Source: a virus (taxonomy: Duplodnaviria > Heunggongvirae > Uroviricota > Caudoviricetes). Taken from it: 33,825 bases of DNA. A program made the translations under genes and the position numbers. The notes under the pieces are model-generated. The model did no database searches. It was not told where the DNA came from and worked only from the letters and a program-made list of their open reading frames with translations. The DNA lies in IMG/VR virus record IMGVR_UViG_2713896907_000008, positions 1-33,825 of that record. One strand, written 5' to 3'. Every line of letters begins with the position of its first letter. Position 1 is the stretch's first letter. This document shows, piece by piece, positions 10,736 to 33,825 of this stretch.

Positions 10736-11170
10736 ATGATGCCAGTTAGCCATTATCTCTGCATTTTCATAAACGTTGGTTTGGGAGAAGCGGCAAAACG
10801 GAATATCGGTGCTGGAGCCAATCAAGTCCCCGACATGTCCTTTTTTACATCAGCAAAGGGTGATAACGGATACTTTTCCTTACCGGACGGCACTATTGTG
10901 CAATATGGAAAAGCCACAACGATAAGAAATAATGAAATTAGCCTGGTAACTTTGCCATTTTCCTTTCCCACAAAGTTCTCTCAGGTACTGATAACCCATG
11001 ATGATGCCGCAACTACAAATGCAGTTGCTTTTGGCGCCGCCACTCCAAAAACTGTTTCAACATTTCAGGTTGTCGTGCAGAAACTAGATTTTAATACCGC
11101 CACTGGAGCTGTCACATTACGAACCACTGCTTCACCGTGCTACTTCCGTTATATCGCAATCGGGAGCTAA
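10736..11170 (+). CDS. alternative tail-fibre C-terminal segment, silent in this orientation
   Basis: No independent start context; shares GLGEAAK at the crossover site with the expressed fibre gene H, then diverges. Confidence 0.6.
   Translation: MMPVSHYLCIFINVGLGEAAKRNIGAGANQVPDMSFFTSAKGDNGYFSLPDGTIVQYGKATTIRNNEISLVTLPFSFPTKFSQVLITHDDAATTNAVAFGAATPKTVSTFQVVVQKLDFNTATGAVTLRTTASPCYFRYIAIGS
10764..10789. repeat. invertase crossover site, left (hix/gix-like, 12-2-12)
   Basis: TTTTCATAAACG TT GGTTTGGGAGAA; 23 bp (10776-10798) is a perfect inverted copy of 12137-12159. Confidence 0.7.
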
Positions 11171-11174
11171 TTTT

Positions 11175-11399
11175 ATGCAAAACAAATACAGTCCATCTAT
11201 GAATACGTTCTTTATGGCTGAATTTATGCGTCGTTACGAACAAGCTGGTACATTGCCTGATGATGCAATAGAGATACCCGATGAAGTATTTAAAGAATAC
11301 ACAGGGGAACCACCGGACGGAATGATGAGGGTTGCGGGTAGTGATGGTCTACCCGCATGGGCAGAAATTATTTACACTCAGGAACCATCGGCCAGATGA
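11175..11399 (+). CDS. alternative tail-fibre assembly chaperone, short (74 aa)
   Basis: N-terminal similarity to the 151-aa chaperone on the opposite strand (…GSDGLPAWAEI… versus …GDDGLPCWVDL…), but stops after 74 aa. Confidence 0.5.
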   Translation: MQNKYSPSMNTFFMAEFMRRYEQAGTLPDDAIEIPDEVFKEYTGEPPDGMMRVAGSDGLPAWAEIIYTQEPSAR

Positions 11400-11823
11400 T
11401 ATCAGGAGCACTGGAGGTATCAATCAGTTCCAGTGCGTCCAGATAATCCAGCCACAGATTATATTGCGCCAGTTCCTCACCTTTCAGACGCCCGATTGCT
11501 GCTTTGCCGGGCCACTGCTTGCTATTCATATAATCGTTGGCCTGGTCAATTCTCGACTGCTTTTCTGAGTCAGCCACTGCAAGTTGTTCTTCATGCGTAG
11601 GTGGCGGAAGATCTACCCAGCAAGGCAACCCATCATCACCAATGCTCCGCACTTTACCTTCGGGAGCTTCTCCCATGAAAACCAGCGCATCGGCAGCATT
11701 TATATTGATGCCGTCTGACGGCCATGTGCCAGCAGTTAAATAATCATCTTGTAGTGCTACAAGATAAAAAGCATTTTCAGCCGGGCTGAATACATAGTCG
11801 ACCATTAATATCCCACTCCCCAT
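11368..11823 (-). CDS. G: tail-fibre assembly protein G
   Basis: 151-aa ORF immediately after H, inside the invertible segment. Confidence 0.8.
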   Translation of the reverse strand: MGSGILMVDYVFSPAENAFYLVALQDDYLTAGTWPSDGININAADALVFMGEAPEGKVRSIGDDGLPCWVDLPPPTHEEQLAVADSEKQSRIDQANDYMNSKQWPGKAAIGRLKGEELAQYNLWLDYLDALELIDTSSAPDIIWPMVPECK

Positions 11824-13208
11824 ACTGCCACTGTTGAATTAGATTTCGTATATGCGCAAGCGGCTTTGAATTTGACCCGGTCAACAATCGCTGCGCTAAC
11901 AAAAGGAGCTCCATTAGTCGCGTAGATCACAGAATTGACCAGCGAAGGATTGATGGAAAGGCAAGCATTAGGAAAGGCAACCGGCCATGAGTCATCAACA
12001 ACGACCATATTACCGTCGGTAGATTGCGGCACTGATACCATCTTCCACTGAAGCAGTGCTGTTCGTTGTACTCCACCAATTAATACTGGAATAGTGATGT
12101 TACCTGCACTGCTGGCCAATGCTGTTGCAGCAGGCATTTTTGCCGCTTCTCCCAAACCAAGGTATGTGAGAAGACCAGCTACATCCTTTCCACTCAAATT
12201 AGTCAGCGTATTGTCCAGCGGTTGTTTACCTGCCAGTGCATTAAGCATTGTCGTGGCAAAGTTCGGGTCATTCCCCAGCGCCGCCGCCAGTTCGTTCAGT
12301 GTATCCAGTGCCGCAGGTGCAGAACCCACCATTGCCGCAATCGCCGATTTCACAAAAGCCGTAGTGGCAATCTGTGTATTGTTGACCGACTGCGCCGCCG
12401 TGGGGGCTGTTGGCGTTCCGGTGAGTGCCGGACTCGACAGTGGCGCTTTCAGTGCCAGCGCATTGTTAATGGTGGTACTGAATTTCGGATCATTGTTAAT
12501 GGCTACGGCTATTTCTTTCAGCGTGTCCAGCGTGGCTGGAGCACCATTAATAAGAGCCGTCAGTGCCGCCTGAACAAACGCGGTGGTCGCAACCTGCGTG
12601 GTGTTATTCCCCGCCGCTGGCGTTGGCGCTTTGGGGGTTCCGGTAAACGTCGGACTTTCTTTGGGTGCATACTGTGAATGCGGGTCCGGTGCGGCAAGAT
12701 GTTTTGCCATCAGGTCATCCACGTACACCTTCAGCTCCAGTGCCTTGTCATCCACATACTTGCGGGTTGCCAGCACTACGGCAGGGTCGATTTTCAGGGT
12801 GATATTGTCCGTGCTGCTGGTAATCAACACCATACGCACGGTCTGGGTACGCCCGCTGCCTTCAGCCAGTTGCGGCTTATAGCTTTCCGGGCAGTTGCCC
12901 ACGGCAATCAATGCCCCGGACTCATCAAACAGGCCCACTTCACGTATCCACCAACCGCCCTCGTTTTCAGGGATCACCTGTTCAGCAATAATCTGGCTGC
13001 TGTTCTGCGGGTCGATATAGAGCATATTCAGCGCAGCCCGGCGTTTCTCATTTACTAATGCTGTCTGCTTTGCGTTCGGCGTTGGCAATGTTCCGCCGCC
13101 ATCGCCGACCGCCATATGGGTAATTTTTAAAGGCACACCGAGCGCGGCGGCGCTGGCAAGTTTCGCCGCGCCAATATCCGTCAGCAGGGTATAAAATTTT
13201 GTGCTCAT
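11805..13208 (-). CDS. H: tail fibre protein H; the last ~118 codons lie inside the invertible segment
   Basis: 467-aa ORF with two copies of a fibre repeat (TTAFV…AP..LDTL.E.A.A..NDP.F.TT..NALA.K.PL); crossover site at 12147-12172. Confidence 0.85.
   Translation of the reverse strand: MSTKFYTLLTDIGAAKLASAAALGVPLKITHMAVGDGGGTLPTPNAKQTALVNEKRRAALNMLYIDPQNSSQIIAEQVIPENEGGWWIREVGLFDESGALIAVGNCPESYKPQLAEGSGRTQTVRMVLITSSTDNITLKIDPAVVLATRKYVDDKALELKVYVDDLMAKHLAAPDPHSQYAPKESPTFTGTPKAPTPAAGNNTTQVATTAFVQAALTALINGAPATLDTLKEIAVAINNDPKFSTTINNALALKAPLSSPALTGTPTAPTAAQSVNNTQIATTAFVKSAIAAMVGSAPAALDTLNELAAALGNDPNFATTMLNALAGKQPLDNTLTNLSGKDVAGLLTYLGLGEAAKMPAATALASSAGNITIPVLIGGVQRTALLQWKMVSVPQSTDGNMVVVDDSWPVAFPNACLSINPSLVNSVIYATNGAPFVSAAIVDRVKFKAACAYTKSNSTVAVWGVGY
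12147..12172. repeat. invertase crossover site, right (inside H)
   Basis: TTCTCCCAAACC AA GGTATGTGAGAA, inverted relative to the site at 10764-10789. Confidence 0.7.
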
Positions 13209-24488: not shown

Positions 24489-25550
24489 TTAATATTCAAA
24501 ATTATTTTCTTCAATAGAGAATTCAATCCCTCGGGATAACTTATCAATATTCACATCAAATTCGATATCTGTTAATTCACCATTCTCGATTTCATACATA
24601 ACTTCAATCTCAATATCGAAACTAATCTCTTGAACTTCAGTTCGTGTGGTTGACTCCATTGGAATCATTACTTTATCTTCGCTATCCCAATACCCATTAT
24701 TAAAGTCTGGACCAGAAACAGTAACTTCAAAATCTACAGGAACAGAGAAGGTCGCTAGACAATAATTATTGTTAATCTTAATTATTGATGGTTCAAAGTC
24801 ATCAATATTGACGACTTCAAATGAATCCAATTCAGCGTCTTCCCAAGTTGAAACGTTATATCCATCGGCATCATTGAGTTGGGCAATTACGTCCGCTCTT
24901 ATGTCTTCACGTTTGCTTTCGATAAACTGCATCAATTTATTACTTAATTCGTTTGTATGCGTATTGTATTCACCTAGAAACTTATCAAGTGAATCAACTT
25001 GATGAAGATTGTTTTTACCATCACAATAATTTTTTAAGTCACTATCCTCAGAAATGATATACACATCTTCATCATTAACAAATCGCTCTACCGCAGCTAA
25101 AGTGATTGCATCAGGAAACTCACTCTTTTTCTTATTTTGCCCAAATGGTGGTTCTTTGCCAAAGTATTTATCTAAAATCTCATTAAGATCTATCACTTCT
25201 ATTGGAGCTAATTTGGCGTGACATCCTTTCAAAAAATCATCAAAAACTTTTTGTGCTGCTTCGTGAATTTCATGTTCGTTAAATTGCTGAAAAAAACCAT
25301 GGAGCGGTCCATTATCAATACTATTCAAAAGCCTAGCTTTTCTTTGTACTGTGTTTATAGCCTGCAGAGCATCCTTTATTGATTCCTCTATTTTACCTTT
25401 TACTTCTCTCTCTACAACTGTAGTTGTAATTAAGACTAAATCACCTTTCGCACATAATTCATGGAAAGCTTTAAATGCTACCCCCTCAAAATGAAGACCA
25501 GCCTTTACGTACGTTTGTGTGTCAATAAATACCTTATTTGTTTTAAGCAT
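24489..25550 (-). CDS. cargo protein, 353 aa: PIN-like N-terminal domain plus acidic C-terminal domain of unknown function; candidate defence/abortive-infection nuclease
   Basis: AT-rich relative to flanking phage genes; own AGGA ribosome-binding site and terminator. Candidate PIN acidic residues: D in VFIDTQ, E in REVKGKIEE, D in EFPDAITL, D in IISEDSDL. Confidence 0.6.
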   Translation of the reverse strand: MLKTNKVFIDTQTYVKAGLHFEGVAFKAFHELCAKGDLVLITTTVVEREVKGKIEESIKDALQAINTVQRKARLLNSIDNGPLHGFFQQFNEHEIHEAAQKVFDDFLKGCHAKLAPIEVIDLNEILDKYFGKEPPFGQNKKKSEFPDAITLAAVERFVNDEDVYIISEDSDLKNYCDGKNNLHQVDSLDKFLGEYNTHTNELSNKLMQFIESKREDIRADVIAQLNDADGYNVSTWEDAELDSFEVVNIDDFEPSIIKINNNYCLATFSVPVDFEVTVSGPDFNNGYWDSEDKVMIPMESTTRTEVQEISFDIEIEVMYEIENGELTDIEFDVNIDKLSRGIEFSIEENNFEY

Positions 25551-25676: not shown

Positions 25677-25695
25677 CTCGTATCCCCGCCACGCC
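25677..25695 (-). other. candidate cos cohesive-end site
   Basis: Minus strand reads GGCGTGGCGGGGATACGAG; the first 13 nt match the P2/186 cohesive end as I recall it (GGCG(A/T)GGCGGGGAAAGCA-). Confidence 0.45.
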
Positions 25696-26074
25696 TGCCC
25701 GCTTTATGCAGTGGTTTTCATGCACATGCATGACATGAGCAAAAGCCCGCCAGTTCTGGCGGATCTGAGCAAAGACGATCCTCAATCGATCATGCGATTT
25801 CATGCAGCATAGTCATGCACTGTCAAGGAAGTGAAAATCCGTATCTGAATGGCCACTTGAAAAACGGATCATACGGGTTTACAAAGATGAATGTTCGCTG
25901 TGAACGGGAAGCGGAAGTTAGCTTTCAGATAACATAATCCATATGCACGAGAACCTCTAAAATAGAATGGGACACCTAAGCGGGGTACTTACAACGATTC
26001 TTTCCATATTCACAGTTAACACTCTGTTTGGCGTATTTTTATTCAAATAGCAAACACCAATAAAAGGAGTTTCC

Positions 26075-27187: not shown

Positions 27188-29602
27188 TTAATACAGGTTC
27201 CGCCACTTATCATCTTCCTTCAGACGCTGGTTCCGATAGAAGATACGCAGGCCTGCTCCTGACGGAATACTGCCGCCGCGAAGGAGCAAATCGACTTCTT
27301 TCTCGCTGCCATCAAATCCCCTGGACTTCAGTTCATAGACGAGCTGCTGTCGCTGATGGTCTGTAATTCGCTGTTTGTAGTCTTTACGCCGTTTCGGTTT
27401 CACCTGGCGTAACCTTGCAGCCAGTTCCCGGCGCTCTTTTTTGCTCATACTGTGCAGGTAATCGTGCAACTCCTTGTCATTCATACGGGTAATATCCGTT
27501 CTGGAGTCCCCATCAGCTGATTTGTCTTTCCCTTGTTGGTTCAAATTTTCAGCAAGGGGACAGTTATTGCCACGAGTCCAAGGGGCGCAAGCGCCCTGGT
27601 CGGCTGCCGCCTCCTGAACGTCAACGGCCTTACGAACCATTTTCCACTTCACTGCATGAGTGCAGATCTTGCCCTCTGCAATGGGTGACCAGATGCCATA
27701 AATACGAATACCGTGATCGCCATAGGCGGTCGGCTCTTCGTTAATTTCATAAGCGGTTCTGATGAGGTGATATTTACGGGGAACCAGTACACCTCCCTGC
27801 TTCATGATATAGGTGGCAAAACAACCAGCATCAGCAGCAGCCAGAATGGCATCAAGGCGCGGGTTATCCAGTACCGGCACACCTGCTTTTTTGTCACCCT
27901 GCTGCCTTGCCGCCTGACCAGCCAGCAATCGCAGTTCACGGTAAGCCTGACGCCCCGGAATACCAAAGAAGCGGAATTGCTGAACACGATGCAAAGACGC
28001 CCAGGCATTCACGTATTCAGCGTTATCACGAAGAGATTTACCCGTTTCCTTGCTGATCTCGCCAGCCAGACCACGCCCGTCAATGTTCTTACTGATGTAT
28101 TTCGCTATGTAGCTTGTCGGCGTTCCTTTGCGCGGGTTAATCAGCTCAGACTTAAAGCGCGGCCCCGTGTTATTGCCCAGCTCCTCGCGGTCTTCACGGA
28201 TAGCAAACTTACGCAACAATGCAGTAATGGCGCGGCGGTCTTTTTTGCGCATGAAACACAACAGGTGCCAGTGAACTGTGCCGTCGTGATGCGGCTCAGC
28301 CACCCGCACGCCATACCAGCGCAACCCGGCTTTGTGCATCGCCTTACGAAATGCAGCAAACATACCGACCAGATAATCGCTGCTTTGTCTTACCGTCGCG
28401 TTTTTCCAGGTCGGGTTGGGTCTGCCGTTATTGAGCGTGGAATGGAAACGTGACGGACAGGTAATGGTGTAGAAAACGGCGCAGTCACCGCGCATTTCCG
28501 CGATAAGCTCCAGACCTTTAACACAGGCCATCATCTCATTGCGGCGATGCGCCGGGTTGCTGCAGCTGGCGTTTACCACATCTTCCATATCCAGCGCGTC
28601 TCCGTCTTCGTTCACCAGTTCATGAGAACGGAAAAACTCCAGCGACTTACGGCGCTGCTCACGTTTATGCATCACAGCTTCATAGCTGACATAGGGAGAT
28701 GCTTTTTTGCTGACCAGGCAGACAGCACGCAACTGCTCTTCCCGCCATTCGCAACGCATCTTCCACAATTTCCGATACCACCAGTCGGCGCACAGCATAC
28801 GCGCCAGCGAGCCCGGAATGAGTTCATAGGGCACTGGTTTACGGCGGTTTCTTTTCCGACGGAGTTGCTCAAACGCAGGCGGGATGACATCCAAACGTAG
28901 GGTTTCCGCTGCCACCTTTTCCCATGTCTTGCGGATTTCTTCTGGCTTAACATCATCGGTGGCGTACAAATCACCACAAGCGGCATCAAGACACATGCTC
29001 ATATGCGCAGCGACAAGGGTAGACAGGCGTTTCACCTGATCCTGACTCATTTCAGGCAGGATCAGCAGGCCGTCCAGCCCTTCATGGCTTGCCATAAAGC
29101 GAAAAGAAGTGGATAGCTGACTGTCGCGTACATGCTCCAGTCGTTCCAGACATGGCTTAATCGTCTCACGCAAATAGCGGGAATAAGCCTTTGGCCTGCC
29201 CAAGCTGCTGAAGTATTCAATACGTTGCATCAGCGGCTTGCTGATATGGGAAGGCTGGGCGTTGACGTCAGCCAGAATGACCATGTCTGGATTAAAACGC
29301 TGCTGCTCATGCGCCAGCTTTGCCCGGCTAATGAGCTTATCCTGCTCCATTTCGCGCTGGACAGGATCACGGGATTCATTAAAGAAATAACGCTCCCAGA
29401 CCTGCTCACTCAGTGCCTCGCGGCGCAGTTGTTCCTGCTCGTTATCGGCAACATACAGAGTGATCAGGTTTGAAAGTGCAGACTCCGGCGCAACTTCCGC
29501 CGGGTCCAGATAAGGGTTAATGGCCTTTTTCGGGCCGTTCCATGAAAATGATGCAGCGGCCTCGTTAAAGCCGCTAGAGTTGCTCATATCGTCATGACTC
29601 AT
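27188..29602 (-). CDS. A: replication initiation protein A (rolling-circle type)
   Basis: 804-aa ORF at the end of the early operon; size and position as P2 gpA. Confidence 0.8.
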
Positions 29603-30456
29603 ACACGCACCTCGTACACAGCAGAACTATCTACGCCACGCGAAGGATCAAATCCCACCCAGCAGCGCGCCCCGGAAACAGCAATGATTTCTGTTGCAGA
29701 TTTACTATCACCAGCTGCCACACCGATGCTGCGTTTTGCCTTGATGTAGTGGTGAGTAAAATTGCGATACAGCGAACGGATCAGGGATGTGTCACTGTTA
29801 GAAACAATGACGGGATGTCCTTCTGATGACCGATGTTCAAGAACGGATGCCAGGTGATACTGGTCATCTTCAGTGAAGCCGTCAGTGTGATAACCGGAAA
29901 ACGTACCGTCATAAGGCGGATCGCAATACACCACATCCCCCACCTGCAGCATCGCCAGCGTTTCATCAAAGCTGGCGCAGATAAACGTTGCTCGCTGGGC
30001 TTTCTCTGCAAATGCGCGAATTTCTTTTTCAGGGAAATACGGATTTTTATAATTACCGTAGGGAATGTTGAAATACCCGCTCTTGTTATAGCGACATAAC
30101 CCACGGTAACCGTGACGATTGAGATACAGGAAATATACCGCTTTCATGAAATCAGTAATTTCAGTTGAGTAATTAAACTCCTGCCTTATGTTGTAATAAG
30201 CCAGCTCACTGTTTGCTTCCTCAAATAAAGCTCTGGCACGAGATATAAACGCCTCGCAATCAGCAGCAACCTTTTTATAGAGGTTGATTAAATCAGGATT
30301 AATATCCGCAACAAGATAGCTGGGGTAATCCGTCTCTATCATCACAGCACAAGAACCCGCGAAAGGTTCAACCAGTCGCGGGCCAGCAGGAAGGTATTTT
30401 TTCAGTTCGGACATAATGGCGGTTTTATTACCCGCCCATTTCAGAATGGTGCTCAT
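29599..30456 (-). CDS. dam: DNA adenine N6-methyltransferase (Dam family), orphan
   Basis: FAGSCA (AdoMet-binding) near the N-terminus and DPPY catalytic motif; start set at [15 protein letters not shown] overlaps with neighbours on both sides. Confidence 0.8.
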
Positions 30457-30755
30457 ACAGCACCTCCTGCAATAACATATCCTAAAGCTTCCAATGGGGT
30501 TAATGGACGAATTGATAGCATCACCCATTGTTCTGAAACTACCATGACGTCATTAACCGGAAGTATATGAGTGATAACAGCAGCCCATTCTCTACCCGTA
30601 AATACGCCATGCTTCCATTCGCAAAGAGAAAGAACATCACCAACTTTATAGCCACGATCGTCTTTACGAAGTTCAGCCGTCTTTTGACCTGCAACCACAG
30701 CGTTGAAATACTTAGGTGCAATTTTTAATTGATGGATACGCACTGCCCTTGTCAT
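30453..30755 (-). CDS. ASCH/PUA-like domain protein
   Basis: About 100-aa ORF ([33 protein letters not shown]…) with the pattern I associate with ASCH domains; coupled to dam. Confidence 0.5.
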
Positions 30756-30979
30756 ACAGCACCTCCGTTGTAATGTTTGCCTTTCAGCTCTGCGATTTCC
30801 TGGCAGGTAATGCAAAGCTGCACTCCCGGAATGGCGCGGCGGCGTGCTGGCGGAATTGGTGCTTCACATTCAATGCAAAGCACGCGAGACACGCCCGGTG
30901 TTTTGGCACGGGCAGCACGGATATGGCGCTGGCGTTCTTCTTCAACGCGCTGCTGTACAAGATCCATTGCATCAGCCAT
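30752..30979 (-). CDS. DksA/TraR-family C4 zinc-finger protein
   Basis: C-x2-C … C-x2-C (CIECEAP…CITCQE) in a 75-aa ORF. Confidence 0.7.
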
Positions 30980-31218
30980 TAGTGGATCTCCTGCGCTTCG
31001 TTCTGGATTGCTTCAGCAGTCAAACGCAGCAGTTCTGCTGCTTCGACGTGGTTTAGCTGGCGAGATGTGATATGACACGCCAGGCTATCAAGGCGAGCAG
31101 CCATTGCTTCAGCCCTTGCCCGGCGTTCTTCCAGACGAGCCTCTGTCAGTAAAAGATTAAAACCTGCATCATCCGGTCCGGTTTTAGTCGTGAGGGTTTC
31201 AATATTACGCATAATCAA
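30979..31218 (-). CDS. hypothetical protein, 79 aa
   Basis: ORF in the early operon, coupled to the next gene. Confidence 0.5.
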   Translation of the reverse strand: MIMRNIETLTTKTGPDDAGFNLLLTEARLEERRARAEAMAARLDSLACHITSRQLNHVEAAELLRLTAEAIQNEAQEIH

Positions 31219-32931: not shown

Positions 32932-33825
32932 ATGAATTTCAAAAGCGGAGGACAAGCAGTCATAACACGTATGCTTGAAGCGTATGGATTCAAGACGCGG
33001 CAAGCTCTATGTGAACAGTTCAATGTATCTGCAAGTACTATGGGAACGCGCTGGATGCGTGACGTATTTCCTGCTGACTGGGTAATTCAGTGTGCAATTG
33101 AAACAGGGGCATCTATCGAATGGCTCTCATTCGGAAAAGGCGTACCATTCCCTCAGAATACAGAGGCACCGGTCATGTCAAAGGCAACTGCACCAAAGAT
33201 TCAGCATGTTCCCCAAATCAATAATCAAGAGAACCCTATTGGGAACTTCCTGAATTTGGATTCAGGCGGGCGTGATGCAATAGACCGGCTAATGAAAGCG
33301 TATGGCTTCAAAACAAGACAAGAACTTGCCGACCATTTGAATGTATCTAAAAGCACCATGGCAAACAGATATTTACGAGACACTTTCCCAGCTGATTGGA
33401 TCATAAAATGCTCGTTGGAAACAGGAAATTCTCTTTTATGGCTAGCCACTGGGCAAGGCAGCAAGCACAGTTCTCTCACAACATTGGTAAAAGAGCTGCC
33501 TAAATTTCATCTCAATGCAGGAAAAATGGTTGAGTGTGGTTCATATATTTTCGATACATCATTTTTACCTGCTAATCTTTCAGCACCAATTGTCATTCAA
33601 GACGGGTTGATGACATACATTTGTGATCAAAACATTACTGATGTATTGGATGGACACTGGCTCATCAATATCGATGAAACCTATTCAATTCGGCATATTA
33701 CAAGACTACCTAAGAAGGTGATAAAAGTATCATCCTCCATAAATAGCTTTGAATGTGGTTTTTCTGATATCAATTTTGTTGCTAGAGTTTATTTATTCAT
33801 TTCCAGCATCAATAAAAGCAATTAA
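32932..33825 (+). CDS. immunity repressor with two tandem CI-type HTH domains and a C-terminal domain of unknown function
   Basis: Residues about 5-70 and 105-170 are about 60% identical repeats (…AYGFKTRQ.L…NVS.STM..R..RD.FPADW.I.C..ETG.S..WL..G.G) resembling the 186 CI N-terminal domain; the stop coincides with the window end. Confidence 0.65.
   Translation: MNFKSGGQAVITRMLEAYGFKTRQALCEQFNVSASTMGTRWMRDVFPADWVIQCAIETGASIEWLSFGKGVPFPQNTEAPVMSKATAPKIQHVPQINNQENPIGNFLNLDSGGRDAIDRLMKAYGFKTRQELADHLNVSKSTMANRYLRDTFPADWIIKCSLETGNSLLWLATGQGSKHSSLTTLVKELPKFHLNAGKMVECGSYIFDTSFLPANLSAPIVIQDGLMTYICDQNITDVLDGHWLINIDETYSIRHITRLPKKVIKVSSSINSFECGFSDINFVARVYLFISSINKSN

Follow-up and report, generated by a model that had tools for sequence, protein, structure and literature searches.

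An optional 299-bp DUF3850 cassette and an orphan Dam methylase gene in a variable slot ahead of replication gene A of a P2-family prophage

The IMG/VR virus record IMGVR_UViG_2713896907_000008 is a stretch of 33,825 bp (hereafter the window) occupied largely by a P2-type prophage. At positions 29599-30979 its minus strand encodes a TraR/DksA-like zinc-finger protein, a DUF3850 protein of the ASCH fold and a Dam-like DNA methyltransferase, immediately ahead of replication gene A. We find that the cargo carried between the TraR-like gene and gene A varies among relatives, and that the DUF3850 gene is an optional cassette within this slot, delimited by two copies of a short repeat. The genes probably constitute the distal portion of an early lytic operon, in a P2-family prophage of the 186/Fels-2-like kind, with a translationally coupled cargo slot and with the functions proposed below; we put the probability of this reading at about 0.6.

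The region begins with a DUF2732 gene (30979..31218, minus strand, as are all genes of the region; PF10809, E = 2e-28), the equivalent of P2 orf80 and 186 CP80, which stands in the same order as in these two phages. Downstream of it lie the genes for a TraR/DksA-type C4 zinc-finger protein of 75 amino acids (30752..30979; PF01258, E = 3e-11), for a DUF3850/ASCH-fold (PUA-like) protein of 100 amino acids counted from the ATG at 30755 (30453..30755; PF12961, E = 9e-24; PF04266 (ASCH), E = 2e-5), for an orphan D12-class N6-adenine DNA methyltransferase (Dam-like) of 285 amino acids counted from the ATG at 30456 (29599..30456; PF02086, E = 1e-75), and for the rolling-circle initiator endonuclease gpA, the 804-residue product of replication gene A (27188..29602; PF05840, E = 6e-127). 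The span 29599-30979 extends exactly from the Dam stop codon to the TraR-like start codon. All Pfam matches of the TraR-like, DUF3850, Dam and gpA proteins are well over the gathering thresholds, and they uphold the TraR-like, ASCH-like and Dam assignments made in a preliminary description of the region. The same description had noted the absence of a restriction partner, which agrees with our results: no restriction endonuclease is present among the open reading frames of the window, where the neighbours of the methylase gene are DUF3850 and gpA, and the remaining reading frames represent P2-type structural, lysis and regulatory genes and a PIN_12 cargo gene 4 kb off. The cognate endonuclease adjoining the methylase that defines a type II restriction-modification system is thus missing from the gene neighbourhood, and the top PADLOC model for the methylase is 'orphan methyltransferase' (oMTase; 5e-110). 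The DUF3850, TraR-like and PIN_12 proteins gave no meaningful match to PADLOC defence models.

The surroundings of these genes are those of a P2-family phage. The window follows the complete P2-type prophage order: after ogr come the genes for tail, lysis and head, then a cos-like site (25677-25695), then the early region. On the 5' side of the TraR-like gene, the CII gene (PF06892), a DUF5347 gene and the DUF2732 gene succeed one another in the order seen in the early lytic operons of 186 and P2. The synteny characteristic of the P2-family early operon (CI and Cox/Apl, CII through DUF2732 and TraR-like to A, and a start codon of A that overlaps the stop codon before it) is therefore found here.

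Adjacent genes of the module share their stop and start codons. The TraR-like stop and the DUF3850 start meet in an ATGA overlap at 30752-30755, the DUF3850 stop and the Dam start in another at 30453-30456, and the Dam stop and the A start in a third at 29599-29602, while the DUF2732 stop and the TraR-like start form TAATG, with an overlap of 1 nt at 30979. The ATGA overlaps between the three genes and the extension of Dam into the start of A, which the preliminary description had reported, can be read directly from the sequence. A Shine-Dalgarno (SD) sequence lies inside the upstream gene ahead of every start, as part of GGAGGTGCTGTATGA twice and of GAGGTGCGTGTATGA before A; the latter junction (29599..29613, minus strand) combines the SD sequence in the 3' end of Dam with the codons at which A starts and Dam stops. 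The gene overlaps are real yet not unusual. A near-identical prophage in E. coli AMSHJX01 contains 8 four-nucleotide and 4 one-nucleotide overlaps over its length. We also scored the genes located 5' of A in 80 P2-family loci of different species (L087-L166), picked by gpA similarity from a one-genome-per-species collection: an overlap of 1 nt between DUF2732 and TraR occurs in 39 of 44 cases, one of 4 nt between TraR and Dam in 10 of 14, and Dam and A overlap in 17 of 28. The GenBank record of phage 186 states of the gene before A that 'translation to end of orf84 appears necessary for translation of A protein', and labels every slot gene 'not essential'. Since the anatomy of the Dam-A junction is identical to that of orf84-A in 186, the sole documented case, the translation of A in this prophage would depend on the translation of Dam.

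A repeat search revealed a 15-nt direct repeat, TCATACAGCACCTCC, at 30453-30467 and 30752-30766, that is, 299 bp apart; on the minus strand it reads GGAGGTGCTGTATGA. The left copy (30752..30766, minus strand) includes the SD sequence and start codon of DUF3850 together with the TraR stop codon, and the right copy (30453..30467, minus strand) the SD sequence and start codon of Dam together with the DUF3850 stop codon. It is because of this repeat that the TraR-like and DUF3850 proteins both end in GGAV. The DUF3850 gene is an optional 299-bp cassette delimited by the two copies: cassette-free relatives have one copy at the TraR-Dam junction and miss exactly 299 bp, being otherwise collinear. 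The cassette is present in 77 of the 1,227 E. coli genomes that match a probe over both junctions, and the others display the exact 299-bp gap, so that about 1,150 E. coli prophages of this type (~94%) carry Dam without DUF3850. A different interruption was observed in one viral contig (L072, 5001-6077), where ~770 bp are inserted into the DUF3850 gene, splitting it, and TraR, Dam and A are intact, consistent with DUF3850 being dispensable.

The variability extends to the whole interval between TraR and A. The gene immediately 5' of A in the 80 loci is Dam in 17, TraR-like in 16, PAPS-reductase-like (the type of 186 orf84) in eight, DUF3850 in seven and DUF5405 in three, and could be assigned to no family in 21. 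The 3' end of TraR, terminating in GGAGGTGCTGTATGA with its SD-ATGA arrangement, forms a constant left border of the slot whichever gene follows. The TraR-to-A interval is a variable cargo slot that may be empty or hold Dam, a PAPS-reductase-like gene, DUF5405, a DnaQ-like exonuclease or DUF3850; in the present prophage it holds DUF3850 and Dam. Some of these genes occur together. Dam lies directly 5' of the PAPS-reductase-like gene in five of the eight species-level loci with the latter (L097, L104, L108, L143, L151), and one further contig (L042) displays the order DUF3850-Dam-PAPS-A. The PAPS-reductase-like gene may represent a second cargo of the DNA-modification type that stacks with Dam.

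The module is an ordinary, common and already annotated part of P2-family prophage architecture. A 2-kb region containing it matches 1,245 of 5,426 complete E. coli genomes, with the best two at 99.2% identity, TraR-Dam-A is carried by about 1,230 of the 5,426, and RefSeq/PGAP names for the genes are in place ('TraR/DksA family transcriptional regulator', 'DUF3850 domain-containing protein', 'DNA adenine methylase' and 'replication endonuclease'). The finding amounts in this respect to routine prophage annotation, with identical genes, order and names in RefSeq for about one fifth of complete E. coli genomes. What is modestly new, as a matter of description, is the clean 299-bp cassette, bounded on either side by a copy of the SD-ATGA junction, and the regularity with which DUF3850 genes stand beside the replication initiator.

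The best matches in phage collections are Klebsiella Kapieceevirus prophages (e.g. ST11-VIM1phi8.4) and Salmonella phage RE2010, which show 95-96% DNA identity over TraR, Dam and the start of A. They share the ATGA overlaps and the junction 15-mer with the present prophage, and differ from it in lacking the 299-bp DUF3850 cassette and having a single copy of the 15-nt junction. Phage 186 likewise has DUF2732 and TraR-like genes at one end of the operon and A at the other, connected by 1-nt and then 4-nt overlaps; its slot genes are non-essential, and its A gene is translationally dependent on the preceding gene. Its cargo, however, consists of a DnaQ-like exonuclease, DUF5405 and the PAPS-reductase-like orf84 in place of DUF3850 and Dam, and its gpA is just 33% identical. 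Escherichia phage ESSI2_ev015 (Quadragintavirus) has an exonuclease, DUF3850, Dam and A in succession, and its DUF3850, directly 5' of Dam, is 71% identical to that of the window. It differs in having a gpA of ~36% identity, an exonuclease instead of TraR ahead of the cassette, and a longer DUF3850 (109 amino acids) that overlaps Dam by 11 nt. The identity of gpA overall is 31-36% to the A proteins of P2, 186 and ESSI2_ev015, and 85% to that of Yersinia phage MLG42.

The preliminary description had suggested that the TraR-like protein modulates host RNA polymerase, a proposal that is well grounded by homology to P2 Orf82 (PMC9239242), which is 47% identical and occupies the same operon position. 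The identity to the 186 homologue is 68%, and searches against the PDB recovered TraR (5W1S/6N57) at 3e-9 and YbiI at 5e-11. TraR, P2 Orf82 and the 186 homologue all have the same four cysteines as the protein here (C35, C38, C56 and C59), and the protein falls within the C4 zinc-finger/TraR subfamily also by its size: P2 Orf82, F-plasmid TraR and lambda Orf73 are likewise proteins of ~73-75 amino acids with a C4 zinc finger and N-terminal D3 and D6. The DxxDxA motif retains D3 and D6 (MADAMDLV), and its position 8 is Val here, Ile in P2 Orf82 and Ala in TraR. P2 Orf82 is a competitor of DksA for RNA polymerase, and its half-maximal inhibitory concentration at rrnB P1 is 250 nM; it too is devoid of the Ala of DxxDxA, and it still binds and inhibits the polymerase, at lower potency (Gopalkrishnan et al., PMC9239242). 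The TraR-like protein is predicted from these similarities to bind RNA polymerase in its secondary channel.

The methylase belongs to the D12 class, with a DPPY motif aligned with that of E. coli Dam (EcoDam), full-length coverage of PF02086 and a motif I of FAGSC against FVGAG in EcoDam. It shares the class and the DPPY motif with EcoDam (2G1P), T4 Dam and P1 Dmt, and phage Dams are orphans as well; unlike EcoDam, it is phage-borne and placed in an early operon. Residues 4-260 align with EcoDam 2G1P (E = 7e-73) at ~55% identity over 257 residues. The EcoDam residues that read GATC are K9, Y119, N120, L122, R124, P134 and Y138 (PMC4417163), and six of the seven are identical here (K6, Y117, L120, R122, P132 and Y136), a level of agreement that we scored as retention of the recognition residues. 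Because of this identity and the six conserved contacts, the methylase is predicted to recognise GATC, the site of the host Dam. The preliminary description had named redundancy with host Dam at GATC, combined with failure of the ASCH-like assignment, as the outcome that would overturn its proposal; the former now stands as a prediction, and the assignment holds.

The methylase gene is dispensable cargo, since close relatives go without it: in three loci with a gpA 82-83% identical (L088, L090, L091), TraR is followed directly by A. It is an established theme that orphan methylases of phages stay off in the lysogen, come on with induction and methylate exported DNA (PMC12707154), and by analogy the most likely role of the present Dam is the same, namely the full methylation of DNA for export. 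A link to M.EcoMIV, the transcriptionally silent prophage 'Dam homolog' of the ST131 strain EC958, was considered and set aside as a parallel only, as family identity could not be shown; the P2-like prophage that we located in EC958 (950-988 kb) has no Dam. A methylome paper of 2015 remarked that the site had yet to be determined for close homologues of a prophage Dam homologue, whose membership in the same family as the window Dam could not be shown.

Under the favoured reading, the operon would run from CI and an Apl-like gene through CII, a possible Fil-like gene, DUF5347, DUF2732 and TraR-like to the cargo and A, and, judging by the maps of 186 and P2, it would be off in the lysogen, with transcription from the early promoter setting in upon induction or infection. 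Ribosomes would be passed from gene to gene via the 1-nt and 4-nt overlaps, with the translation of Dam, the last cargo gene, supplying A. The N-terminal helix of the TraR-like protein, carrying D3 and D6, would enter RNA polymerase's secondary channel and lower the activity of rRNA-type promoters, as shown for P2 Orf82. Dam, by analogy with other phage orphan methylases, would bring the fast-replicating phage DNA to full methylation where too little host Dam, or none, is available. Progeny DNA so methylated could escape nucleases whose target is unmethylated GATC, and could stay clear of hemimethylation-dependent host pathways. DUF3850 would most likely be a nucleic-acid-binding accessory of the replication module, needed neither for Dam nor for A.

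A number of observations weigh against this reading. The strong SD sequences mean that independent initiation of each gene may occur, and the coupling may be only partial. A weak terminator-like hairpin at 29554..29576 (minus strand), 26-48 nt inside A and at most a possible counterpart of tM1 of 186, was rejected and not used as evidence, as its folding energy does not support it (z = -0.31 against shuffled sequences). The predicted GATC specificity comes from sequence comparison, in which the EcoDam contact N120 is replaced by R118 and the loop after DPPY is five residues shorter than in EcoDam. The ratio of observed to expected GATC in the early operon, with the dam gene left out, speaks for the reading: its median is 0.86 in 34 Dam loci against 0.62 in 46 Dam-less loci (Mann-Whitney p = 0.0008), with values as low as 0.16-0.37 in 186/P2-type loci, which fits GATC being a protected site. 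The statistic, however, ignores phylogeny, and in Dam-less close relatives of the Dam lineage the ratio is also near 1. Depletion of GATC over the whole window was considered and set aside, the ratio of 0.69 being unremarkable among palindromic tetramers (GGCC 0.50, CTAG 0.65). E. coli already possesses Dam, so a protective role requires host Dam to be limiting. The weakest part is the proposed function of DUF3850, which derives from fold and gene context.

Alternatively, the methylase would mainly serve to time or control how the phage itself replicates or is packaged, rather than to protect its DNA, in the manner of the Dam methylation of the pac site of P1 (PMC12707154). The position of the Dam gene directly ahead of A and its translational link to A agree with this, and so does the sequence near the cos-like site GGCGTGGCGGGGATACGAG (25677-25695, minus strand): three GATC fall within 30 bp (25762-25791), ~75-105 nt from the site, where P2 and 186, both without Dam, have zero GATC within 260 nt of cos. 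However, a pair of these sites, 11 bp apart and 85 and 96 nt from cos, is fixed in all loci of this cos type, Dam or no Dam (Mann-Whitney p = 0.48), and we rejected the near-cos GATC as a packaging-control target of the phage Dam. Close relatives without Dam also retain the same A and cos types, and the slot genes of 186 are all annotated as non-essential. We consider a main role in replication or packaging control very unlikely, and favour cargo that methylates DNA for export.

The assignment of DUF3850 to the ASCH superfamily, which the preliminary description had proposed to check, is upheld by PF12961, PF04266 and the ASCH octapeptide GxKxxExR, whose G23, K25, E28 and R30 are invariant or nearly so in 22-28 homologues; the protein also conforms to the PUA-like beta-barrel fold. 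P2 Orf91, the E. faecalis protein 3IUW and E. coli YqfB share this fold and the position of the octapeptide. P2 Orf91 is itself a DUF3850 homologue, 41-44% identical (46% for L-413C orf91), and also adjoins gene A; it sits 3' of A in a phage without Dam, whereas the window gene lies 5' of Dam. The catalytic set of a YqfB-type N4-acetylcytidine amidohydrolase (Lys21, the Thr24 nucleophile, Arg26 where counted, and Glu74) is incomplete: the octapeptide reads GQKTAELR, and the position of Thr24 is occupied by Glu28, so that the protein is no enzyme of the YqfB type. The literature on DUF3850 consists of passing mentions, notably of fusions to ParB-CTPase folds in phages, co-encoded with ParA. Distant DUF3850 domains were seen in five viral contigs outside the P2 family (L078, L083, L086, L079, L084), at the C-terminal end of proteins of 265-454 amino acids beside ParA/MinD-like ATPases, and these proteins match the ParB-CTPase-DUF3850 fusions of a 2025 preprint.

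The preliminary description had read DUF3850 and Dam as a writer-reader pair, in which DUF3850 would read the N6-methyladenine (m6A) put on GATC by the adjacent methylase, for anti-restriction or for control of replication or packaging. The two genes are not obligate partners, being statistically independent in the species-level sample, and the idea is not a new one. Iyer, Zhang and Aravind (2016, PMC4738411) predicted ASCH domains to be m6A readers because they are fused to N6A-methylases or linked to them in operons, a published association that speaks for the pair, as does the behaviour of the subfamily to which the window DUF3850 belongs (at least 58% identity, one clade). In all 63 of the 63 viral contigs that reach far enough, including backbones with gpA just 33-38% identical, this subfamily is encoded immediately 5' of Dam, and DNA identities between the two lineages are alike, at 73-75% for DUF3850 and 66-73% for Dam, as though the genes had travelled together. 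This adjacency could reflect a functional link, or shared descent where Dam is fixed; recent co-transfer of the two genes between lineages was rejected, with no near-identical DNA segment and identities of 66-75%. In the 80 species-level loci, on the other hand, both genes, DUF3850 only, Dam only and neither are found in 4, 7, 30 and 39 cases (odds ratio 0.74, Fisher p = 0.75), with Dam in 4 of the 11 loci with a slot DUF3850 against 34 of 80 overall, so that the excess co-occurrence and constant company of an obligate methylase-reader pair are not seen. DUF3850 stands directly before A without Dam in seven loci, and P2 Orf91 after A without Dam. About 94% of E. coli prophages with this Dam have no cassette, and cassette-bearing and cassette-less genes are interspersed in the Dam tree, pointing to repeated gain and loss. 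Enrichment of methylases around DUF3850 outside the P2 family was sought and rejected, as a DNA methylase accounts for 1 of 87 neighbouring genes, the neighbours including ParA-like ATPases, VRR-NUC, DnaB, replication protein O and single-stranded DNA-binding protein (SSB). The conserved residues are charged (H8, K11, K25, E28, R30, D33, R34) and provide no aromatic cage, and m6A reading by ASCH was still experimentally unconfirmed as of 2024 (PMC11037411). Altogether we regard the writer-reader pair as quite improbable. The same charged residues, with the invariant GxKxxExR among them, look catalytic or phosphate-binding, and RefSeq phage records call DUF3850 homologues 'RNA-binding protein', which would suit an enzyme or RNA-directed factor independent of Dam, for instance an RNase or modified-nucleoside hydrolase acting on host or phage RNA early in infection. 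The replacement of the Thr24 nucleophile by Glu28 argues against an amidohydrolase of the YqfB type, and the steady place of DUF3850 in replication modules, next to A, ParA-like ATPases, DnaB, SSB and VRR-NUC, favours DNA transactions over RNA, as do the domain fusions with ParB-CTPase known in phages. We hold an RNA-directed or enzymatic role to be unlikely, and prefer to see in DUF3850 a nucleic-acid-binding accessory of the replication module.

The remainder of the window presents several features unrelated to the module. Its left end is host DNA with grxA, ybjM, ybjL and the RybB small RNA gene, and its right end is the stop codon of the CI repressor gene, with the neighbouring genes and the integrase lying outside. 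The RybB gene (2701-2779, plus strand; Rfam, 106.5 bits) directly adjoins the ogr end of the prophage, and the attachment site is probably at or beside the 3' end of rybB. The CI repressor (32932-33825, plus strand) is a protein of 297 amino acids with two tandem Phage_CI_repr helix-turn-helix domains, clearly alike in sequence, and a C-terminal domain, against a CI gene of only 579 nt (~192 amino acids) in 186. Between the cos-like site and the portal gene, an AT-rich gene (24489-25550, minus strand) encodes a PIN_12-domain protein of 353 amino acids (PF16289, 2e-26); the AMSHJX01 prophage, otherwise 94-99% identical, has DprA and a hypothetical gene at this position. The PIN_12 gene looks like cargo of the known variable region near cos in P2-like phages, and may be a defence gene. 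In the region 10798-12146, where tail-fibre and tail-fibre-assembly genes adjoin the gene of a serine recombinase (invertase), collinearity with the AMSHJX01 prophage is lost and the sole remaining match is 82% over 213 bp, as is typical of a host-range switching segment.

A bolder proposal would cast the DUF3850 subfamily as stand-alone ASCH-fold proteins dedicated to the phage Dam, whose target on phage DNA would be G6mATC, or else GATC in its hemimethylated or unmethylated form, with the pair moving as a unit between P2-family backbones, and in its broader version would make the TraR-A slot a hotspot for early cargo of DNA modification and counter-defence (Dam, PAPS-reductase-like, exonuclease and DUF3850). 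We see little chance of its being correct. If it were, DUF3850 would be the first experimentally tractable ASCH reader of DNA m6A, and under the broader version the slot would correspond, in the lytic cycle, to the defence hotspots known from P2. The natural pairs of prophages with and without the cassette, at 95-99% identity, are a ready genetic test of the ten-year-old prediction of m6A reading by ASCH. For P2-family prophages themselves, the arrangement represents a translationally coupled plug-in slot, in which a 299-bp cassette comes or goes and the reading of its neighbours is left undisturbed.

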